From a virus, in IMG/VR virus record IMGVR_UViG_3300029203_000004: a DNA stretch of 64,000 bases. One strand, written 5' to 3'. Made by a program: the position numbers and the translations under genes. This document shows, piece after piece, positions 3,331 to 64,000 of the stretch; position 1 is the stretch's first letter, and each line of letters opens with the position of its first letter. Under the pieces are notes generated by a model that did no database searches, was not told where the DNA came from, and worked only from the letters and a program-made list of their open reading frames with translations.

Positions 3331-3333
3331 AGA

Positions 3334-39014: not shown

Positions 39015-39027
39015 TAACAAGAAAGTA

Positions 39028-39087
39028 ATGAGTAAAACAACAATTTATTACCTATTCCTAGTAGTAATGTATATGCTGCTAGGATAG
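39028..39087 (+). CDS. conserved 19-aa hydrophobic peptide (copy of 20179..20238)
   Basis: MSKTTIYYLFLVVMYMLLG. Confidence 0.3.
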   Translation: MSKTTIYYLFLVVMYMLLG

Positions 39088-39102
39088 GTGGAAAGGAGAG
39101 AT

Positions 39103-39495: not shown

Positions 39496-39500
39496 ACGGT

Positions 39501-39707
39501 ATGAAAGTCAAGAACGGAATAATAATAGACGGAGTGCTACATGAATTGCGAGTTGGAATATGTGATGAGTGCTCATTACAAAATGAGTGCGATGATAGTT
39601 CAGAAATCATTTGCGATATAGCTTACGAAAACCAAAACATGGACCAGTGCTTTGTCAGTCGTGGGAAAATAACAGATATTAAGATAGATAAGGAGGAAAA
39701 GAAATGA
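39501..39707 (+). CDS. Cys-rich 68-aa protein (NGIIIDGVLHE family), copy 2 of 3
   Basis: Near-identical to 20624..20824. Confidence 0.6.
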   Translation: MKVKNGIIIDGVLHELRVGICDECSLQNECDDSSEIICDIAYENQNMDQCFVSRGKITDIKIDKEEKK

Positions 39708-39970
39708 AACAGGTATTGTCATTCAAGCAAATGAAGCATTTACAAGAACTTGGATTATACCATATCTACACCTTGCAGGATATTCTCGATAAGCTGCCTT
39801 GCTTTATTGGCAATCAAGTGCTTACCATCCAAAAACTTGCGGATAGCTATACGTGCTTGTATATGGAATCTTATAAGATTACAGAGAGTAAAGAACTCAT
39901 TGATGCAGCATACGATATGTTGTGCTGGTGCATTGAAAACGGATATGTTAAAGTTGGGAAGAAGGAATAA
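39704..39970 (+). CDS. hypothetical protein (88 aa)
   Basis: ORF track; ATGA coupling. Confidence 0.6.
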   Translation: MKQVLSFKQMKHLQELGLYHIYTLQDILDKLPCFIGNQVLTIQKLADSYTCLYMESYKITESKELIDAAYDMLCWCIENGYVKVGKKE

Positions 39971-39972
39971 CA

Positions 39973-40131
39973 ATGAAAGCAAGAATAAAAAGAAAAATAC
40001 AAAAAAGACCATTCCTATACAATGTAGGACAAGTTTTTAAGGCTTGTGATTGGCTTACTGAAATTCAGCGTGGAAATATAGTTTGGCATCGGTATCATTC
40101 ATTCGGTACTATTACTAAGCGTTATGTTTAA
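39973..40131 (+). CDS. possible small basic protein (52 aa)
   Basis: Hand translation gives MKARIKRKIQKRPFLYNVGQVFKACDWLTEIQRGNIVWHRYHSFGTITKRYV; shares the MKAR start with the next gene. Confidence 0.35.
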   Translation: MKARIKRKIQKRPFLYNVGQVFKACDWLTEIQRGNIVWHRYHSFGTITKRYV

Positions 40132-40146
40132 ATAAATGATTAAACA

Positions 40147-40425
40147 ATGAAAGCAAGAGTAAAATTAACAGGAGAAATTGTAAATATCAAGGATTTATAT
40201 GATGATGGCACTGCATTGGTGAATGATAAATATTTAAAAATATCAGAACTTGATTTCTTTAGTGAAACTATCGACTGGGAACAGCGTAGATACGAATTGG
40301 CAAAAGAAATCGTTAATGTGGTTATAGCAAACGATATTGGTGTTTGTTCTGATGTAGCTGCTAAATATTCGGTTAATTGTGCTAATGCCATAATTAAAAG
40401 ATTAAAGGAGGTGAATAATGAATAG
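40147..40425 (+). CDS. hypothetical protein (92 aa)
   Basis: ORF track. Confidence 0.6.
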   Translation: MKARVKLTGEIVNIKDLYDDGTALVNDKYLKISELDFFSETIDWEQRRYELAKEIVNVVIANDIGVCSDVAAKYSVNCANAIIKRLKEVNNE

Positions 40426-40624
40426 CGTACAGACACAAACACTTTCCATTAAAGGAGATGGAGGTGGCGAAGCGTATATTGACTTTTGCGATGGACAATT
40501 ATGTGTTTCTGTTGTCATAGAAGGAAAACAGGCGGATTTTCACTTTGAACCTGTCACTCTAGGAATGTTTGCCCATGCTTACAAGCTGCATTGTGAAGAG
40601 TGTGAAAAGAAGAAAGGAGAATAA
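40418..40624 (+). CDS. hypothetical protein (68 aa)
   Basis: ORF track. Confidence 0.55.
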   Translation: MNSVQTQTLSIKGDGGGEAYIDFCDGQLCVSVVIEGKQADFHFEPVTLGMFAHAYKLHCEECEKKKGE

Positions 40625-40626
40625 CC

Positions 40627-40971
40627 ATGAAAGTGTTAAGAGATAAAACTCCTGTCGCTCGTAAAGAGCACAGGTGCAATTTTTGCGGTGGAGTAATTTC
40701 CATTGGAGAAAAATACAACAGACAGACCAATGTTTATGACGGTCGTGTTTATGACTGGGTATCCCACTGTGAATGTTCCGAGTTAGCCTGTGAACTTAAT
40801 ATGTTTGATGATTGCGATGAAGGACTTGACGATGATGGATTTATTGATAGACTTGATCAGTATGTTTACGACAATCATTATGACGATAAAATAGATGATA
40901 TTGCGAAGGATTGGCAATTACCACGTTATGAATTAGTAAAGAAAGTATTGAATGAATTAAACAAGAAATAG
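40627..40971 (+). CDS. zinc-ribbon protein (114 aa)
   Basis: HRCNFCGG...SHCEC. Confidence 0.6.
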   Translation: MKVLRDKTPVARKEHRCNFCGGVISIGEKYNRQTNVYDGRVYDWVSHCECSELACELNMFDDCDEGLDDDGFIDRLDQYVYDNHYDDKIDDIAKDWQLPRYELVKKVLNELNKK

Positions 40972-40973
40972 TT

Positions 40974-41267
40974 ATGACCGAAGAACTTGTGACATTGGAA
41001 ACAGCAAAGTTGCTGAAAGAGAAAGGGATGTTTATAGATATAGAATTTCCTCCACAATCCGTTGCCCAAAAGTGGCTACGTGAAACTAAGAACATTCATA
41101 TATGTATATACAACTGTGCCTGTGGTTATGGATACGAAATATCTAAAGCTGACAATGGAACTCATATAGCTAGTTCTGCTTATAAAGAAACAAATGACGG
41201 AGAAAAATGGGATACCTATGAGGAAGCACTGGAAGCTGGTTTACAGGAAGCATTAAAACTTATATAA
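40974..41267 (+). CDS. hypothetical protein, paralog of 21939..22325
   Basis: MTEELVTLETAKLLKEKG...EEALEAGLQEALKLI. Confidence 0.6.
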   Translation: MTEELVTLETAKLLKEKGMFIDIEFPPQSVAQKWLRETKNIHICIYNCACGYGYEISKADNGTHIASSAYKETNDGEKWDTYEEALEAGLQEALKLI

Positions 41268-41278
41268 AATGACGAAAA

Positions 41279-41488
41279 ATGAAAAGAATAGTTACTGTCC
41301 AAGATATGATTGACGAACTAATGTTAGTTGTCAATAAGGATGCTGAAATAAATATCGTAATGAATACAGGAGATTATCAAACTGAATACATTCCTGATCT
41401 ATATGATTTTTCTGTCATTGATTTTACTGATGTACATCCTGATGATGGAAACTCGGAAAATAAAGTGGTAATAGAAATGTTTCGTTAA
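41279..41488 (+). CDS. hypothetical protein (69 aa)
   Basis: ORF track. Confidence 0.55.
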   Translation: MKRIVTVQDMIDELMLVVNKDAEINIVMNTGDYQTEYIPDLYDFSVIDFTDVHPDDGNSENKVVIEMFR

Positions 41489-41522
41489 AAGAGAAATAAA
41501 TAACACTCAAAACATAAAAGAA

Positions 41523-42005
41523 ATGAATACAACTTTTGAAAGATCGTCTAATAGTACCGATGAATGGTACACACCGAAAGAAATTATAGACGCATTGGGT
41601 GAATTTGACCTTGATCCATGTGCTCCCATGCACCCTCTTTGGCCTACTGCAAAAATCATGTACAACAAGCAGGACAATGGTCTTATACAAAATTGGGGAG
41701 GGCGAATTTGGCTTAACCCTCCGTACTCCAAACCGCTTATGTGGCAGTTTGTAGAGAAATTGGCAGAACCCGGCAACGGTATAGCACTACTTTTTAACCG
41801 ATGTGACAGCAATAAGTTTCAAGACATCATCTTCAAGAAAGCAACCGGTATGATGTTTTTGAGGAATCGAATAAAATTCTTCCGTCCAGACGGAACTCGT
41901 GGGGATTCTCCTGGCTGTGGCAGTATTCTCATCGCTTTTGGTGAGGATAATGCAGAAATATTGAGAACCTGCGATATTGCAGGAAAGTACGTTAGAATCA
42001 ATTAG
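41523..42005 (+). CDS. phage Dam-family DNA N6-adenine methyltransferase
   Basis: STDEWYTPKEIIDALGEFDLDPCA and WLNPPYS (motif IV), with the size typical of the phage N6A-MTase family. Confidence 0.75.
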   Translation: MNTTFERSSNSTDEWYTPKEIIDALGEFDLDPCAPMHPLWPTAKIMYNKQDNGLIQNWGGRIWLNPPYSKPLMWQFVEKLAEPGNGIALLFNRCDSNKFQDIIFKKATGMMFLRNRIKFFRPDGTRGDSPGCGSILIAFGEDNAEILRTCDIAGKYVRIN

Positions 42006-48020: not shown

Positions 48021-49003
48021 TCTGATTATCCGTTTATGCACCTGTTATATTCGCAATTACTAGTCTGTCAAAGAGTTTGTCTCCAAAATACCGTCTGTTT
48101 AATTTGTAAATAAACTCGTTGAGATACAACTGTAAGTATTTCCTTTTGATTTTATGGTAGTTGCCCAGCAATGTCCGTTTTGCATTACTGATTGCGATAT
48201 GCACCCATTTGAGTGTTTCCTTGGTGGTTTTGGCGTCTGATTTCTCGGTGACGTGCAATTCCACCAGATCGGAGATGTCAACGTAAGAAGTGCTTTTGTC
48301 CGAAAATACGATGGCATCATCCTCCATGCAGTCCCTGACCACGCCGTTGATTCCTTCACTTTGATGGCTATCCAGTACCCTGGCCTTGAAATAACGCACA
48401 TGCTTCTCCTTTTTGCCCGTTTCGATATCTTCCAACGGGGTGCTTTCGGCCATCACCGCAACGTTCTGCTTTCCCTCGGCTCCCCGGCCACGTGTACCCT
48501 TGCCTCGCTCGATTTCCTTACTGGCCACCGAAAAGTAACCCTCATCCAGTTCTATCATCCCTTCCAGTGTATACCTTGCATCCCGGTTGCCCATCGCCCT
48601 GCGGAGTTTGTGTACCATCGCCCATACCGGTTCGTAACGCTTCAATCCTAATTGCTTCTGGAGTTCGTTGGTGGAGAATCCCTTTTTTGTGCAACTCATC
48701 AGGAACATCGTTTTGTACCACACCAGAAACGGCAGCTTGGAGCTCTCCATGATCGTACCGCTGCGCAACGAGGTGCGGAAACGGCAACCTTTGCATTCAT
48801 AACTCCATTTACCCTGTAACCAATAATGGGAAGTGCCCCCGCATCGCTTGCAGACAACCCCTTCCTTATCACGCTGCTCCTTGAAATGCAAACGACAATC
48901 TTCCTCCGAACCGAAATGAGCCGTAAAACTGAATATGTTCATAATCCCTGCTTTTTGAGCGCTAATATACTAAAAATATTAGGTGTGTTTGCGGAGAATC
49001 AGA
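48021..49003 (-). mobile_element. IS1595-family insertion sequence (983 bp) with imperfect terminal IRs and an 8-bp TSD AATAAAAA
   Basis: Left end is TCTGATTATCCG...; right end is ...CGGAGAATCAGA (17/23 IR match). AATAAAAA sits at 48013-48020 and 49004-49011. GC-rich relative to the flanks. Confidence 0.8.
48034..48942 (-). CDS. IS1595-family (ISXO2-like DDE) transposase
   Basis: N-terminal zinc ribbon CKRCGGTSHYWL..YECKGCRFRTSLRSGT followed by a DDE-type domain. Confidence 0.8.
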   Translation of the reverse strand: MNIFSFTAHFGSEEDCRLHFKEQRDKEGVVCKRCGGTSHYWLQGKWSYECKGCRFRTSLRSGTIMESSKLPFLVWYKTMFLMSCTKKGFSTNELQKQLGLKRYEPVWAMVHKLRRAMGNRDARYTLEGMIELDEGYFSVASKEIERGKGTRGRGAEGKQNVAVMAESTPLEDIETGKKEKHVRYFKARVLDSHQSEGINGVVRDCMEDDAIVFSDKSTSYVDISDLVELHVTEKSDAKTTKETLKWVHIAISNAKRTLLGNYHKIKRKYLQLYLNEFIYKLNRRYFGDKLFDRLVIANITGA

Positions 49004-49719: not shown

Positions 49720-50046
49720 TTACTCGATAGATGATATGTTTGCTGTTCCCGTAACACTCACCTTGCTTCCTGGTGTGACTGAAAAATATTCCACCGTTCC
49801 TGCCGGGAGAAGCATTCCTGTTGGTGATATTCTGCTTGATCTGCTTTTCGTTTCCTGTACCAATGAGATACGGCATCCATCCGATGTCGCTACTCTTATA
49901 AGGTTTGACAATGCTGTGTATTCCTTGTCGGTTACATCTTCCGATGCTGATATTCTTGCAGCTACGATACCTTTTAACGCTTCATCCTTTGAAGCGTTTT
50001 TGGTGGAGAAATACCCACCTATCTGTTGTTTATCATTGTTTTCCAT
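49720..50046 (-). CDS. hypothetical protein (108 aa)
   Basis: ORF track. Confidence 0.6.
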   Translation of the reverse strand: MENNDKQQIGGYFSTKNASKDEALKGIVAARISASEDVTDKEYTALSNLIRVATSDGCRISLVQETKSRSSRISPTGMLLPAGTVEYFSVTPGSKVSVTGTANISSIE

Positions 50047-50389
50047 ATCCTTTCAAGTAAGATTGTTTCACACTTTCGGCAAACTCGTTCAGCTTTACAT
50101 AATCCGGGTCAAGTTTGTTTAAAATACCTTTTCTGAGAGCCGCTTCTTCCTCACCGTTGGGAAATTCATCCTTTATGGCGGCATCTACCGTTTTGTCGTA
50201 TGATACAGGGTTCTTTACACGCTGTACATCGGCTTTCCACTTTTTGACGAACTTTTCCTGTACAATATTTCCCATATCGTCCGTTTCGGGTTCGTCAACT
50301 TGTTCAATGTTTAAATGAACATTGCTATATCCAGTGCCTAAATCAAAGATAAAGGCAGGCTTCTCGTCAAAAATCAAACCTCTTTCCAT
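50033..50389 (-). CDS. hypothetical acidic protein (118 aa) immediately downstream of the RT
   Basis: ORF track; 3-nt gap to the RT stop. Confidence 0.6.
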   Translation of the reverse strand: MERGLIFDEKPAFIFDLGTGYSNVHLNIEQVDEPETDDMGNIVQEKFVKKWKADVQRVKNPVSYDKTVDAAIKDEFPNGEEEAALRKGILNKLDPDYVKLNEFAESVKQSYLKGYGKQ

Positions 50390-50392
50390 AGT

Positions 50393-51682
50393 TTAAATAT
50401 CTAATGTTCCATCAAAATAATAACCCCTATTGAATTTTATGACAACATCTTCCAATGGTAAAAGGCTTTTGTCTACTTGGGAAAGGAATGCTCCTAATGT
50501 TTCGTATCCGCCTTTCACAAAGCATTTTTCTCCTTTGAACAGTATCTGCATTCTTACCCATGTACTATTGTCCTTCTTTGTAGATGGTCTTACATCAAAA
50601 TCAAGAATGTCTATATGCTCATCGACAAGTTTGTCTATCTTTATATCCTTTCCGTCAAACTTTCTTGACACTCTTATATTTAAGTCACTAATCTTTGTCA
50701 TGTGGCTATTATTATTAACTAAAACTTTATTAATTAAGTTTTTAGAATCACAGTGCATCAACATACCCATATAACTCGTAATTGATTTTGGGTTATTACG
50801 TTTTGACGCAAAGTTTTTCTTTATTCTCTTTCTTATTTTGGTATGACCGGGAGTAAAGACAAATCCACCGAAATCTATCCCTTCTGAAACGGGGAATATC
50901 CTGTAATTTTTCTTCATCTCCAACTTTTTTTCATACCACAGGTAATTTCTTATCCTCCACAGCCATTCATGCAACTGTTTCTTGTCGTGGGATAATATCA
51001 CCATATCATCGGCAAATCTGAAATAATGCTTTACTTTGAACTGCTCCTTTATAACATGATCCAAAGACCTTAATACCAAATGGCTTCCTATCTGAGCGTC
51101 AGGATTGCCAATAGCCAGACCTTTGTTGCTGTAATTAAGCGTATTCATAAGCCATAACGCATCCCTGTCTTTCAAGTCTTTGCTATATGCCTTCTTGTAA
51201 ACGCTGTGTCTTACGGACGGATAAAACTTCTTAATATCCATTTTCAAAACGTATATTTTTCCGTTTTTGTCCATTTCAAGCAATGTCCGTTTCATCTTTC
51301 TCACAAGGGAATGCTTTTTAACCTTACTTGTAATACCCCTTTTGGGCAGACAGTTATATGAATCAAGTGTAAGGCTTTTTGTCCATCTGTCCATCATGGG
51401 TACCAAAAGGCTGTGCTGGATAATCCTGTCCGGGTAAAACGGGAGTTTGTGTATCTCCCTTACCTTTCCTGCATCAGTCACTTTCTCTATCACCTCATAC
51501 TTGCTTACATGGTATGATTTGTCTTTGAGCATCTGATAAACATTCTGATGATATTCATCCTTATGTTTCTCATAATCCCTCACACCCCTGTGATTCCTCT
51601 TTCCTTTCTTTGCCTTTTCAGCAGCAGAGATAATATTATCCATACTGCCTATCGTTTCAAAAATATTATTCAATCTTTTCAT
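50393..51682 (-). CDS. DGR reverse transcriptase (429 aa, long C-terminal extension)
   Basis: RT motifs include LAIGNPDAQ (DGR-type I/LGxxxSQ variant) and RFADDMVIL (YxDD box). Lies 159 nt downstream of the TR. Confidence 0.85.
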   Translation of the reverse strand: MKRLNNIFETIGSMDNIISAAEKAKKGKRNHRGVRDYEKHKDEYHQNVYQMLKDKSYHVSKYEVIEKVTDAGKVREIHKLPFYPDRIIQHSLLVPMMDRWTKSLTLDSYNCLPKRGITSKVKKHSLVRKMKRTLLEMDKNGKIYVLKMDIKKFYPSVRHSVYKKAYSKDLKDRDALWLMNTLNYSNKGLAIGNPDAQIGSHLVLRSLDHVIKEQFKVKHYFRFADDMVILSHDKKQLHEWLWRIRNYLWYEKKLEMKKNYRIFPVSEGIDFGGFVFTPGHTKIRKRIKKNFASKRNNPKSITSYMGMLMHCDSKNLINKVLVNNNSHMTKISDLNIRVSRKFDGKDIKIDKLVDEHIDILDFDVRPSTKKDNSTWVRMQILFKGEKCFVKGGYETLGAFLSQVDKSLLPLEDVVIKFNRGYYFDGTLDI

Positions 51683-51841
51683 CTTACGTGCTTTTCTTTG
51701 TCCGTTGAGCCAAAGATAACTAACTTTCCATATACCTACAACTGTAAATGTACTAATAAGTTCCCATTCTCAAACAATGGGTTGTCTTGACATTTTCCAT
51801 CTTCCTGACGAGGCTTCTGTATAGCAGTAATTTTTTTTAGC

Positions 51842-51951
51842 ACGTTAGCTGCCACCGATGTTCGTGTTCGCATTCGAAGGGGCATTGTTCGCATTACCAT
51901 TCCGCAGAGAACAATTGTCGTTGTCCGACTTACCACCAAAGTAAACACCAC
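51842..51951 (-). repeat. DGR template repeat (TR), 110 bp
   Basis: Aligns with no gaps to 52125-52234 (offset 283). The in-frame reading GVYFGGKSDNDNCSLRNGNANNAPSNANTNIGGS contains nine AAY codons. Confidence 0.9.
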
Positions 51952-52038
51952 CATTCTACAGACCGCCTTTTTTCAACTAACCGCCTTTGACAGACTTATT
52001 TAACTTTGCTGACGCATTTGGTTAGATTTTTAATTATG

Positions 52039-52046
52039 CAAACTTA
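52039..52046 (-). promoter_or_regulatory. -7 promoter box TAagTTTG upstream of the TR (candidate promoter of the TR-RT RNA)
   Basis: The plus strand reads CAAACTTA; ~88 nt upstream (minus sense) of the TR. Confidence 0.4.
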
Positions 52047-52083
52047 AACATTATTAATATATTTTGCAAGTTTTGGGAGGGGG

Positions 52084-52104
52084 ATTTTTCACTTCGTGAA
52101 AAAT
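52084..52104 (-). other. 9-bp-stem hairpin ATTTTTCAC-TTC-GTGAAAAAT at the target-gene stop, 20 nt 3' of the VR
   Basis: Perfect inverted repeat read directly. Could be a terminator and/or the hairpin/cruciform that marks DGR target sites. Confidence 0.5.
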
Positions 52105-54134
52105 TAGGGTTGGGTTATTGTACAACGAAAGCCGCCACCGAAGTTCGTGAACGCAACCGAAGGGGCATGGTACGCACTACCAGGCCGCAGAGAACAATGG
52201 TCGTTGATCGACAGACCACCAAAGAAAACACCACGCCTTCCAATCTTACCCGAACCTGCATTTCCCGTAAACCAGTTGTAATGGCATTCCCCCGTGTGAA
52301 GATTGCTTCCCTTGACCTCTCCAATAAGAGAGTTCTTAAAGTTCTTCGTTATGCATCCTTCACCTCTAGCCATAGAACCGACAAATTCATATGTATTCTC
52401 AAAACCGTAAGATTCCCCAGGATTCTTTTCTGTGGCTACATTGTCCGTAGTCAGATTGTTCACGTCATAGGTCTGATAGATGTCTATGGATGTAGAATCG
52501 TGCATGACACAATCTATCCCACTGTACCACATCCATATATCTCCCCACCCGGCAATACGTCCGCGAATGATAGGCTGTGTGAAGCATATCTCTATTTCAC
52601 GGTTTGTAACTGCCGCATTGTCAGGAATACTCCATCCGCTAGTTACAGTTGCATTGACAAACTTGGCTACGATACCCGACATCTCCCCGTCAGCCAATCC
52701 GTTATGACCTTGGAAGTTGTAGTATTTGTATTTTGTGCTTTCATATTCAAACTCGGTGTCGGGAGCGACATTGTGTTCCTTTGCGTATGACATGGCAAGC
52801 TGCGCTTCAAACATCTTCATGCAAGGACGGTAGTTGTTTATAAGCTGTGAAAAATTGTAAGCAGTTCCTGTTTCTGATGCTTTAAATCCTTGCCCGTTCA
52901 TCTTGTAATACACATAAGTCTGACCGTCCGCCTTCTTGAATCTGACGCCTGTCATTTTCCCCCAGCTTGACGCATCGGGGGCTGAATCGTTGGATGATAT
53001 TCCTTTTCCGCAAACAGACTGTGCGTGTAGGTCTTTTGTTCTAAACTTAATAAAGAGAAGCGTACACCACACTTCAAGGTCAAGGGCGAAGGCATTGGCA
53101 TAAGGATAGTTCTTCGTAATGTCCGGGTTCTTTGCCCTGGCGTATTTCTCAAAATCAAAACGTGATACATTTGTCGTAGGCCATCCATTTCCTTCCATTA
53201 TGTTTACGCCTAGATTTCCTACTGATGTTGCTCCTTTTACCGTGTTGTCAAAAATAGATCTCTGCTTCCCATCCTTTATCGTGGAGTAACCGATACTCAT
53301 TCCGAACGGTTTTATCTCTATGGCCGTATCGCCACCGTATGTAAACGGAGCGTCACTGACTAGCCTTCTTTCGTATGTATCATCCGTTCCTCCGTTGATT
53401 ATCCAGAAAGGCTTGGTGTTTACAAGCATAATATCGCTTCCGTCATCTGTTACATCAGTTCCGTCAATAACAATATTTGACGGGCTACCGTCAGTCATTT
53501 TGAAGAAATTGGTCTGGTCAAGGAATCCTACTACCTTACCGTCCTTTACCTTTGCCGCACGGAAAGAGTTGAGGATAGGATGTGATGTCTTGAACTCTTC
53601 CTTTCCTATCCATGTCTGAAATACAGGGTCTGTCTGCCCTCTTCTCATTTCCACTCCATATATATTCCCCTGCTGCATCTTTATCTGTTCGAGAAGCGTT
53701 TTGTAGTCATTGGTGAAATCATTTGTGGATAACTCCTTACCGTCCACCTTGTCTACCTTCTTGTCTAGGGCTGTTTTCTGTGCGGTGGATACAGGCTTTT
53801 CTGCATCGGACGTATTGTCCACATTAGACAGACCTATATTGTCTTTCGTTATATTGACATTCCCTGTCCTGTAAGACTGTTCGGCATTACCTTTCACGCC
53901 TATGACGGTATTCTTCTGTGCGCCTTTCTCTATCCCGTCAAGTTTGGTTTTTAACTGGGTAGTAAAGTTGTTGTCGGTATGAACATAGTTTTCGTCCATT
54001 ACCATGCCTTGTCTTATCTTGGACACCGTGACGGATTTGTTCTCTTTAGGGCTTCCCGTCACACATGGTATCATCTCTTCTCCCGTAGCGGTCTCAACGG
54101 GAGGCATCTGTGAAATTTTAAGATTATCTTCCAT
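52104..54134 (-). CDS. DGR target protein: tail-fibre/receptor-binding protein with a C-terminal variable region
   Basis: The VR encodes the last ~40 aa (GVFFGGLSINDHCSLRPGSAYHAPSVAFTNFGGGFR). N-terminus MEDNLKISQMPP is tail-fibre-like. The ORF track allows a start at 54203. Confidence 0.8.
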   Translation of the reverse strand: MEDNLKISQMPPVETATGEEMIPCVTGSPKENKSVTVSKIRQGMVMDENYVHTDNNFTTQLKTKLDGIEKGAQKNTVIGVKGNAEQSYRTGNVNITKDNIGLSNVDNTSDAEKPVSTAQKTALDKKVDKVDGKELSTNDFTNDYKTLLEQIKMQQGNIYGVEMRRGQTDPVFQTWIGKEEFKTSHPILNSFRAAKVKDGKVVGFLDQTNFFKMTDGSPSNIVIDGTDVTDDGSDIMLVNTKPFWIINGGTDDTYERRLVSDAPFTYGGDTAIEIKPFGMSIGYSTIKDGKQRSIFDNTVKGATSVGNLGVNIMEGNGWPTTNVSRFDFEKYARAKNPDITKNYPYANAFALDLEVWCTLLFIKFRTKDLHAQSVCGKGISSNDSAPDASSWGKMTGVRFKKADGQTYVYYKMNGQGFKASETGTAYNFSQLINNYRPCMKMFEAQLAMSYAKEHNVAPDTEFEYESTKYKYYNFQGHNGLADGEMSGIVAKFVNATVTSGWSIPDNAAVTNREIEICFTQPIIRGRIAGWGDIWMWYSGIDCVMHDSTSIDIYQTYDVNNLTTDNVATEKNPGESYGFENTYEFVGSMARGEGCITKNFKNSLIGEVKGSNLHTGECHYNWFTGNAGSGKIGRRGVFFGGLSINDHCSLRPGSAYHAPSVAFTNFGGGFRCTITQP
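52125..52234 (-). repeat. DGR variable repeat (VR)
   Basis: 19 mismatches to the TR, 18 of them at TR adenines (coding strand). 81 of 82 non-A positions are identical. Confidence 0.9.
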
Positions 54135-54376
54135 TATTTTTATAGTATTAATATACGATCTTACACCAAATAAATTTTGATAACTTTTAGTTATAAAAGT
54201 CATAATTATTTTGGTGCTAAGGTAAGAATAAAATGCCTAAATTTATATATATTATAAGTTTTTTTTTGCAAATTAAGCATTAAGATAAAAGTTCCTCTTT
54301 TATCTTTGGTGTCCGCTTGTATATCAGTGCCGATGATAATCAATAAAAATAGTTTTGCATTCCAATATTTTTTTCG

Positions 54377-54384
54377 TATCTTTG
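54377..54384 (+). promoter_or_regulatory. -7 promoter box TAtcTTTG
   Basis: 27 nt upstream of the tnpB ATG (54411). Confidence 0.45.
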
Positions 54385-54410
54385 AGTATTAAAAATCAAA
54401 TAAAATCGCC

Positions 54411-55649
54411 ATGTTGAGAGCTTATAAATATAGAATCTATCCGACAGAAGAACAGAAGGTTTTGCTTGCCAAGACCTTCGGCTGCTGCCGCTTTGTCTAT
54501 AACTGGGCACTCAAAATGAAGATTGAAGCCTACAAGCAGGAAAAGAAATCTATTGGCAATGTTGAACTGACCAATCGCATGAAGAGGGAATTGAAAACGG
54601 AATATGAGTGGTTAGGTGAGGTAAATTCGCAATCTTTGCAAAGTGCGTTGAGAAACCTTGACGCCGCCTTTAAGAACTTTTTCCGTGATACTCATGCAGT
54701 AGGCTTTCCTAAATTAAAAAACAAAAAGGACAGGCAGAGTTTTCAGTGCCCCCAGCATTGTGTCGTGGATTTCGGCAAAGGAACAATAACCATACCGAAA
54801 GTAAAGGATATTCCTGCTGTGTTTCACCGCAAATTCAAGGGAATGGTCAAAACCGTCACCATCAGCATGACACCATCGAGAAAATACTTCGCTTCCGTAT
54901 TGGTTGACACAGACATTGAAGAACTTCCGGTAACACCGATACATGACGATACGTGTTTGGGTATAGATTTGGGTATCAAATCACTTGCCGTATGTTCTGA
55001 TGGGAGAACGTTTGACAACCCGAAAAACCTGCAACGAAACCTTGACCGTTTAAAATTGCTTCAAAAGCGGTTGAGCCGCAAACAGAAAGGTTCTTCAAAC
55101 CGCAACAAGGCACGCATCCGCGTAGCTAGGCTGCATGAACATATTGCCAATTGCCGTAAAGATAACCTTCACAAAATCACCCATACTCTCACGCACGATA
55201 GCCAAGTGCGTACCATCTGCATGGAGGATTTGAACGTGAAAGGAATGATGCAAAACCACCACTTGGCACAGGCAGTAGGTGACGCATCTTTCGGGATGTT
55301 TCTTACGCTGCTTAAATACAAATGCAGTTGGTATGGTGTGAACCTCATTCAGATAAACCGATTTGCCCCAAGTTCAAAGACTTGCGGAAAATGCGGTTAT
55401 GTGTATAAAGGATTGAAATTGAGCGATCGCAGTTGGATCTGTCCGGAATGTGGCACACACCATGACCGTGACTTCAATGCAGCTTGCAATATAAAGGAAT
55501 TTGGCTTAAAAGCCCTACCCACGGAGCGTGGGAAAGTTAAGCCTGTGGACTGTCCTCTTGTGGATGACCGACCTCGTGTCCTAAAAAGCAATGACAGGAA
55601 GAAGCAGGAAAAGAGAGGATGTGTTGGCATCTCCAATCCGCTAAACTAA
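54411..55649 (+). CDS. tnpB: TnpB (IS200/IS605 OrfB, RuvC-like RNA-guided nuclease family)
   Basis: MLRAYKYRIYPT N-terminus; RuvC D/E/D in GIDLGIK, CMEDLNVKGM and HDRDFNAACNI; zinc finger CGKCGY...CPECG. Confidence 0.9.
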   Translation: MLRAYKYRIYPTEEQKVLLAKTFGCCRFVYNWALKMKIEAYKQEKKSIGNVELTNRMKRELKTEYEWLGEVNSQSLQSALRNLDAAFKNFFRDTHAVGFPKLKNKKDRQSFQCPQHCVVDFGKGTITIPKVKDIPAVFHRKFKGMVKTVTISMTPSRKYFASVLVDTDIEELPVTPIHDDTCLGIDLGIKSLAVCSDGRTFDNPKNLQRNLDRLKLLQKRLSRKQKGSSNRNKARIRVARLHEHIANCRKDNLHKITHTLTHDSQVRTICMEDLNVKGMMQNHHLAQAVGDASFGMFLTLLKYKCSWYGVNLIQINRFAPSSKTCGKCGYVYKGLKLSDRSWICPECGTHHDRDFNAACNIKEFGLKALPTERGKVKPVDCPLVDDRPRVLKSNDRKKQEKRGCVGISNPLN

Positions 55650-55659
55650 AGATTTAGCG
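55637..55659. terminator. Hairpin CCGCTAAA-CTAAAGA-TTTAGCGG spanning the tnpB stop
   Basis: 8-bp perfect stem. Lies between the converging tnpB and 55665..57359; may also be the IS right-end/omega-RNA terminal hairpin. Confidence 0.5.
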
Positions 55660-55664
55660 GTAGC

Positions 55665-57359
55665 TCACTCCGTTAATATTAAACCATCGTTTTCAAGCAA
55701 TATGCTGTATCCATTTTCAGTGATTACGGTATTCCGAAGAACCTCTAGCGTTATCCTTGAATCAGCAAGCTTCCATGAATTGTCAGAAAACGGCATATAC
55801 CCGTCTTTCTTTACAGACAGCGACATCGTGCCATTTGCCATACCCCGTACTTTCACTGTACCGTCAGACAACGTTTTGTACTGTACGCCTCCCACCGTGA
55901 CCGTTGCGTCCTGTATGGGTGAGCCTGATACGTCCACCACCGTTATCGTTACGATAGCCTTCGGTATATAGTAGTCAATCAAATCCTGCTCGGTGAATCC
56001 GTCATTCTGTTTGGTGGGAACTGAATCGAAACCGATGGAGTTGTAGAAAGCTGAACTAATCCATCCGCTATTATGGTCAGTATTGCTAAAGAATATAGGA
56101 GTTTTAGTTTTATCACCTGTCACATCATTGTTTACTATGGTGATTATTTGCTTTTTGTTTAACAAAGCGGAAACTATTGTAGATTCATTCAGTGTTCCAT
56201 CAATATAGGTCTTGCCGTTTGAGTTCCTACTATTATAAGCAATACTACCTTTGTCATTGAATACGGCAAACAGCCAAGGTTCAGTAGTATTCAGTCTTTG
56301 GTCATAGATAAACTTTCCATCAACAAACGGATTAATAGTAGTAAACAACACCTTAACGCCATGCTGTAAGTTCTGTATTTGCCCATAATCATCTACCCCA
56401 TCAGTTACTAGGGCGTTGGGATATCTAGGTATAAACTCTATTGTTACATCCATATCTCCTGTACTTCCTGTAACTCCTATGGCGTTATACAATGAAGTGG
56501 TTCCTTCGGGATAGGTTAATGTCACCTCATGCTCCCCGTTGTCAAAAGTATAAAATCCGCCATTTCTGTTTACCAAACTAACTTGTCTGCCATCAGAAAG
56601 ACCTGTAACCTTAAACTTATGCGTTGGGTTAGAGTTTGCCGGAACTATGTTTACCATGTTATCTGTGGTGGATAGTTTCTTAGTAATATGTATAACCCTG
56701 TTATCCGTAACAGTAACATTTGCTCTATCGGGTAGAATATTGGTGCTAGAAATGTCATACCCTCCCACACCGCTCATTGCAGCGAACAGGAAATTGTTAA
56801 GTTTCAATCGTCTGTTGTTTCCACTGAAATCCTGCAAGTATGGATTGGCTTTTAGTATTTCGTTTGTGGGAACGGATTGTCCTGACGGTAGCTGGGTAAT
56901 GGTAAGACCTATGTAATCAGTTACTCCACTTACTCCCATAAAAGCAACAGTTGTAGCAAAACTATGAGGAAGTACATTTTCTCCGTCTTTTAACTTAATA
57001 TTTGTGATTTGATTACTATTTTCATCCAACTTCACTCTATATACTAAGTTTTTATCACCAAGACCTTCTATAAATACGGAAAATGATTCTGTTTCTTTTC
57101 CTATGGATGCTATTCTAAAATTGTCTATCAAACCATTAACCACAATCTTATTGTTGGTTATACTAACAGAATTAGGGTTATAATTTTGCCAATCATTAAA
57201 ATTCTGTGTATAAACATCCACAGGCTTTGTCATATCATACCAAAACACCATGTGTTCTTTCACCCATTTTTCTATCACCTTGCTTATGTCGGTTTTCGCC
57301 TTTCCTGCCGACTTGACAAGACCAAGTTTTCCTATGTTAAAAAGCCCTATCTTTCTCAT
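55665..57359 (-). CDS. tail fibre / receptor-binding-like protein with C-terminal CarboxypepD_reg-like Ig domain
   Basis: C-terminus VTITVVDVSGSPIQDATVTVGGVQYKTLSDGTVKVRGMANGTMSLSVKKDGYMPF; late-module context. Confidence 0.6.
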   Translation of the reverse strand: MRKIGLFNIGKLGLVKSAGKAKTDISKVIEKWVKEHMVFWYDMTKPVDVYTQNFNDWQNYNPNSVSITNNKIVVNGLIDNFRIASIGKETESFSVFIEGLGDKNLVYRVKLDENSNQITNIKLKDGENVLPHSFATTVAFMGVSGVTDYIGLTITQLPSGQSVPTNEILKANPYLQDFSGNNRRLKLNNFLFAAMSGVGGYDISSTNILPDRANVTVTDNRVIHITKKLSTTDNMVNIVPANSNPTHKFKVTGLSDGRQVSLVNRNGGFYTFDNGEHEVTLTYPEGTTSLYNAIGVTGSTGDMDVTIEFIPRYPNALVTDGVDDYGQIQNLQHGVKVLFTTINPFVDGKFIYDQRLNTTEPWLFAVFNDKGSIAYNSRNSNGKTYIDGTLNESTIVSALLNKKQIITIVNNDVTGDKTKTPIFFSNTDHNSGWISSAFYNSIGFDSVPTKQNDGFTEQDLIDYYIPKAIVTITVVDVSGSPIQDATVTVGGVQYKTLSDGTVKVRGMANGTMSLSVKKDGYMPFSDNSWKLADSRITLEVLRNTVITENGYSILLENDGLILTE

Positions 57360-61199: not shown

Positions 61200-64000
61200 T
61201 TAATTGTTAATTCCTAATCTATTTTCCAATTCTCTTACTCTTTTCTTTAATCTTGTAACTTCATCGTCAACTTCCTGCAACCCCTTCCATACAACAGGAA
61301 TAAGTCTTTCATAATCTATGGTGTAATAGTCCTTGAATATATCACTGACCCACTGACTGTAACCGCCGGAAAGTAAATCCTGGGCGATAAGACCATAATT
61401 CCATTTTTTATGATTGAATATCTCGGAATTTCTCTTGGCAAGATTGTTCCAGTGATATTTCACGCTCCGGAATTTGCGGATAATACCCATAGCATCATAA
61501 CCCTGAATATCGGTTTTCAACCTTATATCGGAAGAGGATGCCTTGGCAGTAATTGCTCCAGTGGCTATTATATTCCCATTAGATTTTATAGAACCATTCA
61601 CCGTCAATTTATATCCCGTGTCACCGCCATCTGGATTTTGCCCAATATATACTTGCCCACCCCTTGGTTGGAGCGATAAGTTACATCTTGATTGATACTG
61701 CGTAGGATAACTATGAGATTGTCCGTCTGTCGCATCAATAGAAGTCTGCAAACATATATTTCCGTCACTTCTTGCATCAGTTATACGCCCACTGTAAACC
61801 TTTAATGTAGCATCTCCAGTTTGCACAAATATACTTGTTGAAGTCATTTGCCCACCAACATCTCCAGAACCATTAAACGGCTGACCAAAAATATTTCTAG
61901 TATTGACAAGAACATTTGCCGCATGGGAAAGACCTGCTGTTACTGCAACAACAGTGTATTTTGAACCGCCAGGTGTTCCCGTAGTGCCATTATTTTGTGT
62001 GGTCACATACCCATAAGGGTATTGTTCCACTATCTTTATTGCAATATACGGGTCATAACTGTCCTTGACACATTTCATCCATACTCTCCATGTTATGCCA
62101 TCATCCGTTGTACATCTTAATTCGGGAAGCCAACTTTGCCCGAAATTTGTCACGTAGAAAATATAACCTGCATTATTATCTCTACCTCTTCTTATTCTAA
62201 GAACTGCACGCCCATTCATACCACCACCCGTTTCCACTCTACATAAGTCAAATATTACGTATGCTCTTAATTGTTCCTGCCCAGTAGGAATCACGAACCT
62301 TAAAAATTCTATATAGTCATAATTATTATATTGGGAAACAAAACCATCGTATTTACGATTCTGATAATATGCTCCATGTTGTCCGTCCAGTAAATCCGCA
62401 CTTAGATTATCTACGGTTGTATTGCTTGAAACTATCAAAGGTGATAACCCTGTGGCAACAGTTGACATGAATCTCGGTGCTCTTACATCATTTGGAGTGA
62501 CACGTAAAACCAGCTTGTTGTTATGGTCTACGACACCAAATCCTGCACTATCCGTACTACTTCCTCTAAGGTTTCCTATATACCAGTAGGTGTCATGCCA
62601 GTTGAACCTTAATCCGTTTCTTATAGAAGTAAGCCCACCATCATCGTTCTTGATAACTCCGTTATCTTTATAGATATTGGTAATATCACAATTTTCCACT
62701 CCCTTGAATACGATTGCGCCGGAAGTGGAAGCGGATGTAAGGGTTCCAGTCATAGTATCGCCAGCCTTTTTCACCCATCTACCGTCCAATACGGAAGTAG
62801 GGATATGACTTGCATCTATGACTTTACTTGAATCAGCCTTTTTCAATTCAGCCCACATAGCGTCAGCGTCAAGTCCTCCCTGCCCAGCCATGTCGTACAG
62901 TTTCTTTATCGTGTACGCATTAAACGTATTGTCAAGGTCTGAATCGGAGAAGGTTGTGCCGTCAGTAAGGTTTGCGAAGCTGTAAACGGTATTTACAACA
63001 CCGCTGCCACCACCGCTACCACCTGTTTTCACGCCAAGAGCAGATACCCAACCGTCCGAGTAGAATCCTACCGTGTTTCCGTCTGTTCTATGCTTCACTC
63101 TCAGAGCCTTGTTTGCAGAATCGTAAACAAGTTGGGCATCTCCTATCTGTATATATTCGTTTGCTGTAAGTCGTGCTGCGGAAACGCCACCTGTAAATCC
63201 TGCTGAAACGCCATTGAGGTGTCCTTGTTTGTTTATTTGTATTACTCCTACATCTGACGTATCTCCATTAGGACGGAAATAAATCATACCCTCATTTCCA
63301 TAGCTTGATATGACGGTATTGCCTGTCGTGTTACGGAAAACAGTATTTCCGCCATAAGACAGACCGATACCACTATTCATCAGAATATTCTTGGTAAATG
63401 TCTTTTGTCCCGAAATAGTCTGAGCAGTAGTCAAGGTAACGGCATCAGTAATCCCGTACCCTGCCAAAGTGGTAGGATTATCACCAACTGTAACACGCCC
63501 GTAGGTGTCTACTGTAACTTTCGTATATGTACCAGCATTCACCCCCGTGGTAGCCAGTGACAATGTGCGGTTTGCGGACAGGTTTCCACCTCCCGTAAGA
63601 CCAGTTCCTGCACTTATCGTTATGGTCTTGTCCGCTTTCAGTGCAAGAAGTTCGGCTAGGTTGTCGCTTTCCGTAAGACCGTCAAGAAACGCTTCAAGTT
63701 CTTTCCATTTGTTGATAATGTTATCGGCATCGCTTCCTTCTAGGAAGTTATTCAACTTGTTGCTTAACTGTGTTACAGTATTATTCAGCGTACCCAAGTC
63801 CTGTTGTCTAGCGAATGTTTCCCCGAATACGGCAGTGATGGTTTTCCCGTCAGAACTAAGTGCCATGTTTGTTACGGCATTTCCACTTCCCGACTGGGTG
63901 ATGTTTTTTATACCACCACCTTCCTTCGCCATTTTCCAAATCTCGTTTATCGTGTACGCATTAAACGTATTGTCAAGGTCTGAATCGGAGAAGGTTGTGC
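61200..64000 (-). CDS. large tail fibre with C-terminal peptidase-S74 intramolecular chaperone domain (5' end outside the window)
   Basis: C-terminus SSDIRLKTDIQ...YGLIAQDL...IDYERLIPVVWKGLQE fits S74. The frame stays open upstream of the M at 63932 (..TTFSDSDLDNTFNAYTINEIWK-M) up to the window edge. Confidence 0.8.
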   Translation of the reverse strand, partial: TTFSDSDLDNTFNAYTINEIWKMAKEGGGIKNITQSGSGNAVTNMALSSDGKTITAVFGETFARQQDLGTLNNTVTQLSNKLNNFLEGSDADNIINKWKELEAFLDGLTESDNLAELLALKADKTITISAGTGLTGGGNLSANRTLSLATTGVNAGTYTKVTVDTYGRVTVGDNPTTLAGYGITDAVTLTTAQTISGQKTFTKNILMNSGIGLSYGGNTVFRNTTGNTVISSYGNEGMIYFRPNGDTSDVGVIQINKQGHLNGVSAGFTGGVSAARLTANEYIQIGDAQLVYDSANKALRVKHRTDGNTVGFYSDGWVSALGVKTGGSGGGSGVVNTVYSFANLTDGTTFSDSDLDNTFNAYTIKKLYDMAGQGGLDADAMWAELKKADSSKVIDASHIPTSVLDGRWVKKAGDTMTGTLTSASTSGAIVFKGVENCDITNIYKDNGVIKNDDGGLTSIRNGLRFNWHDTYWYIGNLRGSSTDSAGFGVVDHNNKLVLRVTPNDVRAPRFMSTVATGLSPLIVSSNTTVDNLSADLLDGQHGAYYQNRKYDGFVSQYNNYDYIEFLRFVIPTGQEQLRAYVIFDLCRVETGGGMNGRAVLRIRRGRDNNAGYIFYVTNFGQSWLPELRCTTDDGITWRVWMKCVKDSYDPYIAIKIVEQYPYGYVTTQNNGTTGTPGGSKYTVVAVTAGLSHAANVLVNTRNIFGQPFNGSGDVGGQMTSTSIFVQTGDATLKVYSGRITDARSDGNICLQTSIDATDGQSHSYPTQYQSRCNLSLQPRGGQVYIGQNPDGGDTGYKLTVNGSIKSNGNIIATGAITAKASSSDIRLKTDIQGYDAMGIIRKFRSVKYHWNNLAKRNSEIFNHKKWNYGLIAQDLLSGGYSQWVSDIFKDYYTIDYERLIPVVWKGLQEVDDEVTRLKKRVRELENRLGINN

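Follow-up and report, generated by a model that had tools for sequence, protein, structure and literature searches.

An Avd-less diversity-generating retroelement cassette targeting a tail-fibre gene of a human-gut phage

Two similar repeats, one at the 3' end of a tail-fibre gene and one beside a reverse transcriptase (RT) gene, raise the question of whether the phage that carries them still rewrites its fibre and with what machinery. In this study, we analysed 64,000 nucleotides of a virus genome (IMG/VR record IMGVR_UViG_3300029203_000004; hereafter the window) together with related gut-phage contigs, and we conclude with high confidence that the locus is a diversity-generating retroelement (DGR), active now or until very recently, of a human-gut tailed phage, the host of which is probably a member of Bacteroidales. 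The initial annotation had already read it as a recently active DGR, and this is borne out by the adenine bias of the repeats, by an RT resembling that of Bordetella phage BPP-1 (bRT) and by 34 cognate repeat pairs. Tail-fibre diversification by DGRs is already well documented in gut Bacteroidales phages, and the kind of system is well known; what is unusual here is the lack of an Avd helper and the fusion of the RT to a small partner protein that is uncharacterised.

On the minus strand, TR (51842-51951) and VR (52125-52234) align over 110 bp without gaps and with 19 mismatches, and the likeness ends abruptly at either side. In 18 of the 19 mismatches the TR base is an adenine (10 A>T, 5 A>C, 3 A>G; hypergeometric/Fisher P = 1.1e-12), that is, 18 of the 28 TR adenines are changed in VR and 81 of the 82 non-A positions are unchanged; codon positions 1 and 2 hold 27 of the 28 adenines, and seven of the nine AAY codons are recoded. 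These counts and both peptide readings had been given from the sequence at the outset and were all reproduced on recount, with two changes of meaning. The figure of 18 adenine mismatches is right, but the three 3'-most (TR 51850, 51846, 51845 / VR 52133, 52129, 52128), at which the last 17 nt of the repeats differ, are fixed in every recovered VR and are thus differences between IMH and IMH* rather than products of mutagenesis. All 18 VRs of the first scan, 14 of them unique, read G, T, T here, and G, T, T is also fixed within the anchor pattern of the metagenome scan, which recovered 33 more loci; TR copies, sought in the form AGCTAACGT, were found downstream of each recovered locus. With these differences set aside, 15 of 25 mutable adenines are changed in the window VR. 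The sole non-A mismatch, a G>A (TR 51925 / VR 52208), had been placed correctly, but falls where both G and A occur in TR itself across the population. The assignment of IMH follows what is known of BPP-1, and its homing function is presumed by analogy. A hairpin lies 20 nt past IMH, its first base being the last of the target stop codon, and a hairpin of other sequence was seen by eye at the matching place in loci L001 and L021-L024; the z-score of the entire 101-nt stretch is only -1.5, and the hairpin may act as a homing enhancer or a terminator. The features of the cassette are collected in Table 1.

Table 1. Features of the cassette and their positions in the window
Feature	Position	Strand	Description
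DGR target, tail-fibre / receptor-binding protein	52104..54134	-	676 aa plus stop
VR, mutable part	52142..52234	-	25 adenine-templated positions in 15 codons; all 25 vary among related phages
IMH (initiation of mutagenic homing), VR 3' end	52125..52141	-	TCGGTGGCGGCTTTCGT; encodes conserved GGGFR
Hairpin	52084..52104	-	ATTTTTCAC-GAA-GTGAAAAAT; MFE and centroid folds
Putative Bacteroidota-type promoter of TR-spacer-RT transcript	52039..52070	-	CTTG, 20 nt, TAAGTTTG; read from sequence
TR, templating part	51859..51951	-	25 mutable adenines, 9 AAY codons
IMH*, TR 3' end	51842..51858	-	TCGGTGGCAGCTAACGT; in-frame TAA inside
Structured spacer RNA, TR to RT start	51683..51841	-	four helices, two invariant single-stranded blocks
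Spacer RNA helices	51810-51807/51801-51798; 51781-51776/51768-51763; 51761-51755/51725-51719; 51750-51744/51735-51729	-	
Spacer RNA invariant single-stranded blocks	51797-51782; 51760-51751	-	GAAAATGTCAAGACAA; CTTATTAGTA
DGR reverse transcriptase, polymerase part	50708..51682	-	residues 1-325 of 429-aa ORF; Pfam RVT_1 3e-9; PHROG 1423; PDB
RT C-terminal domain	50393..50707	-	residues ~326-429 plus stop; fused copy of ~98-aa protein

Whether such a pattern arises by copying from TR was examined between genomes. In place of the read mapping first suggested, a blind scan that ignored VR content and a TR-anchored scan of related gut-phage contigs yielded 40 cognate TR/VR pairs, 34 of them unique, in which variation lies at TR-A sites and tracks the cognate allele. 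Among the unique pairs, 494 of 870 TR-A cells (57%) are mutated in VR (206 to G, 160 to T, 128 to C), as against 13 of 2292 non-A cells (0.57%), and the former density is in line with the ~50% published for active Bacteroides DGRs (10.1101/2024.11.15.621889). Non-A polymorphisms of TR (indices 59, 60, 70, 74 and 79) are copied in the cognate VR in 34/34 pairs at each site, index 59 mirroring its two TR alleles in 14/14 and 20/20 cases; at indices 26, 33, 65, 69, 75, 76 and 78, which are A in some TR alleles only, VR varies almost only where the cognate TR has A, with exceptions in four cells. Two genomes with TR(G26), the window included, have A at VR index 26, which the present TR cannot account for if templating is strictly A-only. 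All 28 adenines are kept in 15/15 TR copies of the first scan, the population has only a few TR alleles, and no stop codon occurs in the recovered VRs. In eight near relatives, 1101 bp upstream of VR are 99.8-99.9% identical to the window and the VR-TR spacer and TR are 100% identical, and in the seven whose loci reach it the RT is 99.1-100% identical; over the 110 bp of the repeat, even so, their VRs depart from the window VR at 12-21 positions. The target protein belongs to a 90%-identity cluster of 6131 distinct sequences, and its remoter homologues (33-74% identity) all lie in target-TR-RT cassettes with mismatches at A only or almost only. Since variation is confined to TR-A sites and follows the cognate allele, copying runs from TR to VR, adenine-specifically, in natural populations, and the element is active or recently active; the test is one between genomes rather than in real time, and we infer the activity of the window's own genome from between-contig variation.

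In the sole DGR that has been dissected biochemically, Avd is essential. The window cassette runs target-VR(IMH)-TR(IMH*)-RT on one strand and includes neither Avd nor any other known accessory gene; this order recurs in all relatives examined. It had been likened to BPP-1, and the succession of target-VR, TR and RT on one strand does agree, but no Avd lies between VR and TR, where 173 non-coding bp (51952-52124) hold no ORF. A phmmer search of the window with BPP-1 Avd gave no match, and the Pfam bAvd model, which finds BPP-1 Avd at 7e-36, matched 0 of 106 window ORFs and none of 148 RT-flanking ORFs in 48 related loci; a BPP-1-type cassette (Wu architecture B, avd-TR-RT) was rejected on these grounds. 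The cassette is of the Avd-less TG-VR(IMH)-TR(IMH*)-RT type (Wu architecture A1 / lineage 3; crAssphage LMMB), described for crAss-like phages and for lineage 3 of Wu et al. (PMC7290462, PMC5758913), the likeness to lineage 3 being one of layout and of 36-40% RT identity to crAss-like phage RTs.

The RT matches the phage RT family PHROG 1423 at 7.5e-77, and its nearest solved structure is BPP-1 bRT (8ub7_A; E 3e-21, residues 2-291), with group II intron RTs behind it (E 6e-6). Its motifs LAIGNPDAQ and FRFADD align to IGSLTSQ and YMDD of BPP-1 bRT, which upholds the earlier description of a DGR-type RT with IGxxx(S/A)Q and FADD; they depart from the usual form in having IGxxxAQ for SQ and FADD for YxDD. 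By these motifs and profiles, the RT appears to belong to the DGR clade with its catalytic motifs intact. The C-terminal domain is conserved in RTs as low as 31% identity and is homologous to stand-alone ORFs adjoining RT in related DGRs: a member of this ~98-aa family is present at 53 of 56 related loci, fused at 8, immediately downstream at 39 and upstream at 6. The domain had no match in Pfam or PDB and falls in PHROG 19665, a family of unknown function; its linkage to RT suggests a role in the cassette.

Between TR and RT lies a spacer with conserved structure. Eight spacers, whose RTs are 36-93% identical to that of the window, were aligned with MAFFT, and RNAalifold found 24 pairs, 19 of them with compensatory changes; 93.7% of cells are paired, whereas slid controls gave 21-52% and the observed value was reached by 0 of 500 shuffles. 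The conserved structure is thus supported by covariation, and the spacer had no match in Rfam. The transcript may start from a promoter between VR and TR, where a candidate conserved in L020 may match the Bacteroides consensus (-33 TTTG / -7 TAnnTTTG).

The target start was fixed at ATG 54134 by comparing relatives (676-685 aa), in agreement with the gene span first proposed; a longer mechanical ORF to 54203 was rejected, as its extension falls within a TnpB insertion. Only the window genome has this 1.5-kb TnpB element, 6 nt upstream of the target's ATG, and it might disturb target expression. The description of the target as a tail-fibre-type protein also holds: residues 60-177 match tail-fibre PHROGs and phage tail-fibre genes, the best BFVD match of its AlphaFold model is a 'Receptor binding complex' at ~100% identity, and crAss-like tail fibres come next (cr7_1, cr55_1, cr85_1 and cr6_1 proteins, E 1e-20 to 1e-24). 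In the full-length model, residues 178-699 are confident (mostly pLDDT above 90) and 1-177 disordered. Among PDB structures, the DGR variable proteins TaqVP (probability 0.98, E 2e-3) and Mtd rank first, and further BFVD matches include one that is TvpA-like (E 1e-7, TMt 0.52) and another that is FGE/SUMF-like (8e-4); the TM-scores of the C-type-lectin structure matches are low, the shortened model gave no structure match, and searches by sequence and by profile (hhalign included) gave no match to Mtd or in PDB and Pfam. A GGGFR motif is present at the C-terminus. From the model, VR is predicted to lie in a C-type-lectin-like ligand-binding domain. The target gene is located within a tail-fibre gene cluster and is flanked by two other large fibre-like genes (55665-57359 and 61200-63932).

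Several other explanations have to be weighed against this reading. The cassette might be a fossil, inactive now in the window genome, with VR differences that are old alleles shuffled by recombination; the TnpB insertion unique to this genome and the A in VR where the present TR has G would fit, and crAss-like phages often have cassettes that are incomplete or silent (PMC7290462, PMC12386605). However, old alleles are expected to gather non-A changes, which are rare here, VRs follow their own TR allele, 32 of the 33 VRs from the blind scan are mutually different while their flanks differ by ~0.1%, all TR adenines are kept, and the intact RT ORF shows 96-100% identity between relatives, all of which makes present inactivity very improbable. 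It is also conceivable that a conventional Avd or known accessory factor is encoded by the host or outside the window, the RT C-terminal domain being unrelated to retrohoming, since related contigs reach 95-128 kb and the genome extends beyond the window, and since Avd proteins are poorly conserved and could escape Pfam (PMC5758913). Against this stand the bAvd model, which recognises BPP-1 Avd and nothing here, the small protein or domain tied to RT in three arrangements, and the survey of Wu et al., in which genomes with avd-less DGRs hold no remote avd and lineage 3 is without avd altogether (PMC5758913); we consider a remote factor unlikely.

A different doubt concerns not the activity of the cassette but the role of its product, which could be an accessory adhesin (for mucus, glycans or capsule) rather than a host-receptor binder, in which case host range would not be what diversification tunes. 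The equivalent protein of BPP-1 is the tropism determinant, which speaks against an adhesin, as do the tail-fibre families matched by the N-terminal part, the name of the closest deposited protein and the position within the tail-fibre cluster. On the other hand, the two flanking fibre-like genes give the phage several candidate binders, and both tentaclins and the lectin of Hankyphage have been suggested to play such adhesin roles (PMC6199706, PMC10743442). On balance, an accessory adhesin seems to us unlikely.

For an active cassette that diversifies a receptor-binding protein, we propose that a transcript of TR and the ~160-nt structured spacer, probably made from the promoter between VR and TR and possibly including RT, is the template of a cDNA, from a priming site whose exact position we infer, that would replace VR at the 3' end of the tail-fibre gene. 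The GC-rich IMH would set the 3' boundary of replacement, and the non-identical IMH* in TR would keep information flowing one way, from TR to VR. Fifteen codons, most of them AAY, would be rewritten on the predicted C-type-lectin-like tip, with about 1e15 possible DNA and about 5e14 possible peptide variants and a stop reachable from one codon only; the benefit would presumably be receptor retargeting. In place of Avd, the RT bears its fused ~100-aa C-terminal domain, of which related DGRs have a counterpart in a separate small RT-adjoining gene.

Compared with known systems, the cassette shares with BPP-1 (mtd-avd-TR-brt) the adenine-specific TR/VR pair at the 3' end of a tail-fibre gene, IMH and IMH* at the repeat 3' ends, a hairpin just past the target, a spacer between TR and RT, and bRT as the best solved-structure match of its RT. 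It differs in that BPP-1 has a 128-aa avd gene in place of the non-coding interval, motifs SQ and YMDD for AQ and FADD, a spacer without obvious sequence similarity, an Mtd without detectable sequence similarity to the window target, and an RT of 328 aa, the window RT being longer (429 aa) because of its extra C-terminal domain. The DGRs of crAss-like phages (crAssphage LMMB, cr55_1, cr50_1 and csAssE-Sib, OR575929), with Wu lineage 3 / A1, have the same avd-less layout, and those of crAss-like phages share the tail-fibre target and human-gut origin (PMC7290462). The cr phage RTs are 36-40% identical to the window RT over residues 1-312, and that of csAssE-Sib, whose record annotates VR/IMH/TR/IMH* in the window's order, is 28% identical over residues 13-428 and has a GxxxSP motif instead; these are different phages, and at the nucleotide level no deposited phage matched across the cassette. 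Hankyphage (Bacteroides phage p00), of the same gut Bacteroides host group, likewise has target-VR, TR and a long RT (434 aa), but it is a Mu-like transposable phage, its RT is just 28.6% identical, and its target is very large, with VR at residues 2188-2225, in contrast to the 676-aa fibre of the window. The Hankyphage DGR is experimentally active (PMC12135933), the small ORF named Avd in that phage was so named on size and charge alone (PMC6199706), and residues 327-422 of its RT belong to the same domain family that ends the window RT (E 2e-18).

Alignment of the template repeat (TR) with the variable repeat (VR) at the 3' end of the tail-fibre gene was ungapped over 110 bp on the minus strand, with 19 mismatches and an abrupt stop of similarity at both ends. 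Eighteen mismatches fall on TR adenines (10 A>T, 5 A>C and 3 A>G; P = 1.1e-12 for at least 18 of 19, given 28 adenines in 110 positions), and the remaining one is a G>A change (TR 51925 / VR 52208, index 26 of the alignment). TR adenines occupy codon positions 1 or 2 in 27 of 28 cases, and seven of the nine AAY codons of the TR are recoded in the VR. The mismatch and AAY-codon counts and the peptide readings of both repeats are those of the initial annotation, in which a diversity-generating retroelement (DGR) acting on the fibre C-terminus had been recognized. Its 18 adenine mismatches are correct as counts, but three of them are not products of mutagenesis: the 3'-most, at indices 101, 105 and 106, are G, T and T in all 18 VRs (14 unique) recovered in the first of two population scans, and represent fixed differences between the 3' ends of VR (IMH) and TR (IMH*). 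The same three bases also belonged to the anchor by which 33 further VRs were picked up. This leaves a mutable set of 25 adenines, spread over 15 codons, which permits 4^25 = 1.1e15 DNA variants and about 5e14 peptides, with only one mutable codon (AAG) able to turn into a stop. A second VR was sought in the window and none was found. As for index 26, this site is itself polymorphic (G or A) among the TRs of the population, and VRs paired with G-allele TRs carry G in 13 cases and A in two (the window and the related locus L010); either an A-allele TR was the last template of the VR of the window, or the G>A change is a rare non-A error.

Related loci were collected in two scans, one using the TR pattern with every A masked (18 IMG/VR contigs) and the other a pattern anchored on the VR flanks only and blind to VR content (33 human-gut metagenome contigs). 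Together with the window, they provided 40 cognate TR/VR pairs, 34 of them unique, in which cells were counted over the first 93 positions. Among the unique pairs the VR differed at 494 of 870 TR-adenine cells (57%; 206 to G, 160 to T and 128 to C) versus 13 of 2292 non-A cells (0.57%), the former agreeing with the mutation density of about 50% in active Bacteroides DGRs (10.1101/2024.11.15.621889), and no stop codon was present in the 14 unique VRs of the first scan. Eight relatives share with the window 99.8-99.9% identity over the 1101 bp directly 5' of the VR, 100% identity in the VR-TR spacer and TR and, in the seven loci extending into the reverse transcriptase (RT), 99.1-100% RT identity; their VRs differ from that of the window at 12-21 positions of the 110-bp repeat. 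At the non-A polymorphisms of the TR (indices 59, 60, 70, 74 and 79) VR and cognate TR share the same base in 34 of 34 pairs per site (at index 59, for example, in 14/14 and 20/20 pairs for the respective alleles), and at sites with A and non-A alleles (indices 26, 33, 65, 69, 75, 76 and 78) the VR is variable almost solely where its own TR has A, with four cells excepted. This shows that copying from TR to VR is cognate, one-way and adenine-specific. The population evidence thus bears out the A-to-N mutagenic homing and recent activity proposed initially: the finding is real and its interpretation essentially right, the DGR has been writing adenine-directed variation into the tail-fibre tip, and the population data point to ongoing or very recent activity. 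As expected from a hypervariable tip, the 90%-identity cluster of the target protein holds 6131 distinct sequences.

At least seven TR alleles circulate among the related loci L002-L057, and the commonest metagenome allele differs from the TR of the window at seven positions. Some alleles gain adenines (indices 26, 69, 75 and 76) and others lose them (indices 33, 65 and 78), with the result that which codons can be diversified is itself subject to evolution. These alleles constitute a clean natural experiment, in which a VR site becomes variable or invariant as the matching TR position gains or loses an adenine, and cognate, adenine-specific templating is demonstrable from natural alleles without laboratory work. 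Rare non-adenine changes occur in the VRs of L009 and L011 (indices 18-21) and of L003 and L012 (index 81); those in L009/L011 directly adjoin mutated adenines (GGTAAG to GCCCGG), a hint that the RT, or repair, now and then introduces errors of several bases.

Coordinates of the DGR cassette and neighbouring features
Feature	Coordinates	Strand	Description
Template repeat (TR)	51951-51842	minus	110 bp
Variable repeat (VR)	52234-52125	minus	110 bp
Target tail-fibre gene	52104-54134	minus	676 aa
Reverse transcriptase (RT)	50393-51682	minus	429 aa
118-aa ORF	50033-50389	minus	start 4 nt past RT stop
IMH		minus	3' end of VR; TCGGTGGCGGCTTTCGT, codes for conserved GGGFR
IMH*		minus	3' end of TR; TCGGTGGCAGCTAACGT, in-frame TAA
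Near-invariant single-stranded spacer block	51797-51782	minus	GAAAATGTCAAGACAA
Near-invariant single-stranded spacer block	51760-51751	minus	CTTATTAGTA
Hairpin, 9 bp	52104-52084	minus	begins at target stop codon, 20 nt past IMH
Putative promoter	52070-52039	minus	CTTG-N20-TAAGTTTG
TnpB element, 1528 bp	54141-55668	plus (tnpB ORF)	IS200/IS605-type, TnpB only; tnpB ORF 54411-55649; NCBIfam IS200_TnpB, 2.8e-123
IS1595-family transposase gene	48034-48942	minus	NCBIfam 8e-59

The RT matches Pfam RVT_1 and PHROG 1423 (7.5e-77), and contains the IGNPDAQ motif and FADD box read initially. Its closest solved structure is the BPP-1 DGR RT (8ub7_A, E 3e-21), and its phage relatives are DGR RTs of crAss-like phages (36-40% identity) and of csAssE-Sib and Hankyphage (28-29%). 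The accessory protein Avd was not matched in the window by phmmer with BPP-1 Avd as query, nor did Pfam bAvd, which scores BPP-1 Avd at 7e-36 as positive control, match any of the 106 window ORFs of 85-200 aa. The ORF of 118 aa that follows the RT was rejected as an Avd candidate; it has no Pfam or NCBIfam match and does not resemble the ORF after the csAssE-Sib RT. Its relatives are 92-100% identical in nucleotide sequence, it is syntenic and of the same size in the related locus L020, and its sole match is PHROG 11557 (unknown function, 1e-4). In another related locus, L021, the called RT of 502 aa (2831-4339) overlaps the TR (2796-2903) at its 5' end; the real start probably lies further downstream, and the case illustrates that over-extended RT ORFs can swallow TRs.

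Compared with bRT, the RT has about 100 extra residues, an extension kept in relatives with as little as 31% identity. Searching viral contigs with an RT alignment returned many DGR RTs, and where these measure ~320 aa, the match of the extension in tblastn carries on in another frame, the extension being homologous to a stand-alone ORF of ~98-101 aa. An HMM of these ~98-aa ORFs detected the family in 53 of the 56 related DGR loci: eight fused to the RT, 39 immediately downstream, typically with a 4-10 nt overlap with the RT stop, and six ~250 nt upstream, in the usual position of avd. Exhaustive phmmer with the C-terminal domain gave 26 representatives, some of them fused proteins of 435-488 aa and the others free ones of 77-144 aa, compared with four matches in a word-indexed protein search. 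The family corresponds to PHROG 19665 (unknown function), and its HMM matches residues 327-422 of the RT of Hankyphage (E 2e-18), whose DGR is experimentally active (PMC12135933). According to Wu et al. (PMC5758913), unexplained extensions at the C-terminus occur in ~20% of DGR RTs, and avd is missing from lineage 3; in the literature searched we found no statement equating the RT extension with a fused accessory gene.

It is possible, although we hold the idea only tentatively and regard it as somewhat doubtful, that the C-terminal domain and its ~98-aa homologues are the missing accessory subunit of Avd-less DGRs, and may replace Avd in its job with no detectable similarity to it. Such a protein or domain would hold the RT on the structured TR-spacer RNA and enable priming. 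A kinship of the domain with Avd was looked for and not found (hhalign probability 0.1 against BPP-1 Avd); the family HMM matched neither BPP-1 Avd nor bbp4, the domain and family had no match in Pfam or PDB, and Pfam Avd matched none of the 148 ORFs flanking the RT in 48 split loci. If a replacement of Avd by this family is true, a large and abundant lineage of gut-phage DGRs uses a different two-part enzyme, and the fusion in this phage is a natural single-chain version, handy for biochemistry. About 48 viral contigs from many environments (L091-L138), which are without Avd and have a ~98-aa ORF overlapping the RT stop, contain 2-3 tandem genes of ~125-160 aa located 0.2-1.5 kb upstream of ~320-aa RTs related to that of the window; the encoded proteins end in ...G(S/A)RLC(F/T)...YAG.QF..LY and look like multiple small variable-protein targets.

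The spacer between TR and RT start (159 nt) is 98-100% identical in close relatives and recognisably conserved in DGRs with RTs 36-70% identical to that of the window. An unguided alignment of eight spacers gave a consensus of 24 pairs in five helices with compensatory changes at 19 pairs; 93.7% of cells are paired, versus 21-52% with partners slid by 1-3 columns, and none of 500 shuffles reached the observed values. In BPP-1, a spacer adenosine primes cDNA synthesis, and by analogy one of the invariant adenines here, with candidates at 51796, 51795, 51793, 51788 and 51783, may be the primer. The BPP-1 spacer and this one have no evident similarity in sequence. Scanning the window with Rfam (at the gathering threshold) and for tRNAs returned nothing. 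The hairpin after the target gene may aid homing, as in BPP-1, or may simply terminate transcription; distant relatives have, by eye, unrelated hairpins at the same place. Where the window has one hairpin, csAssE-Sib has a run of four short ones after its target gene (6282-6345; ATGGGT-GCA-ACCCAT, GATGGC-GCA-GCCATC, AGCGC-A-GCGCT and AAGGC-GCA-GCCTT), three of them with a GCA loop. The putative promoter is proposed from its likeness to the Bacteroides promoter consensus.

The target start at 54134, as annotated initially, is an ATG and holds, the product length of 676 aa being in line with relatives; a longer ORF up to 54203 extends into an inserted element. Tail-fibre repeats occupy residues 60-177, and other fibre genes lie nearby (55665-57359 and 61200-63932). 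The AlphaFold model is confident over residues 178-699, and in the PDB it comes closest to two DGR variable proteins, TaqVP (probability 0.98, E 2e-3) and Mtd. In BFVD, the target matched a "Receptor binding complex" of Myoviridae sp. ct04y17 (~100% identity), crAss-like tail-fibre proteins (E 1e-20 to 1e-24), a TvpA-like protein (E 1e-7) and an FGE/SUMF-like protein. A C-type-lectin fold, which the initial annotation suggested looking for, is thus supported by the model but not firmly established, because TM-scores were low, a truncated model (residues 330-699) had lower confidence and no meaningful PDB match, and neither profile searching of PDB sequences nor hhalign against Mtd gave a match.

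The window is phage DNA, with helicase, primase, sliding clamp, integrase, methyltransferase and tail-fibre genes, and related contigs (up to 128 kb) originate from human-gut samples. In megablast searches of deposited phages the cassette had no match, and 24 kb of the window had only short matching patches in the DNA methyltransferase region (about 38900-42000), ~90% identical in nucleotides to Bacteroides LoVEphage and Phocaeicola phage PV4-TP1, which suggests gene exchange among phages of Bacteroidaceae in this region; the remainder of the 24 kb matches no deposited phage. The host is probably a member of Bacteroidales, because nucleotide matches are only to Bacteroides/Phocaeicola phages, the RT and target have crAss-like and Hankyphage relatives, and a Dysgonamonadaceae MAG holds one target homologue. 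An exact TR 57-mer had no match in GTDB species-representative genomes, so no prophage copy was found there.

The TnpB element is inserted between the stop of a 564-aa tail gene and the target ATG, 6 nt from the latter and antisense to both genes, and is absent from every related contig covering the site. Through the insertion the upstream gene has a changed stop codon (GAA TAA to GAG TGA), and the end past tnpB has a subterminal hairpin, CCGCTAAA...TTTAGCGG. As a host clue the element was discarded, its best genome relatives being only 46% identical and in Clostridia and actinomycetes. A second mobile element near the cassette is represented by the IS1595-family transposase, ~1.5 kb past the RT.

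Gut Bacteroidales phages are already known to vary their tail fibres with such cassettes, and as a DGR the present one is ordinary; it adds one more case, well supported, from a lineage of human-gut phages that is abundant and uncultured. About one in four DGRs is Avd-less, the crAss-like and Hankyphage types among them. For specialists, the small protein fused or adjacent to the RT and the covarying ~160-nt spacer RNA, both candidates for the machinery of Avd-independent retrohoming, may outweigh the DGR itself. The BPP-1-like order initially ascribed to the cassette does not stand, since BPP-1 is arranged as mtd-VR, avd, TR and brt, whereas here VR and TR are separated by 173 non-coding bp (51952-52124) and avd is absent between them. 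The order TG-VR(IMH)-TR(IMH*)-RT without avd is the layout of crAssphage LMMB and of lineage 3 / architecture A1 of Wu et al. (PMC7290462, PMC5758913). csAssE-Sib is annotated with the same order, and distant target homologues on other contigs (33-74% identity) are all in the order target-TR-RT, with mismatches at A only or almost so. The cassette is thus of the Avd-less, crAss/Hankyphage-like type rather than of the BPP-1 type.
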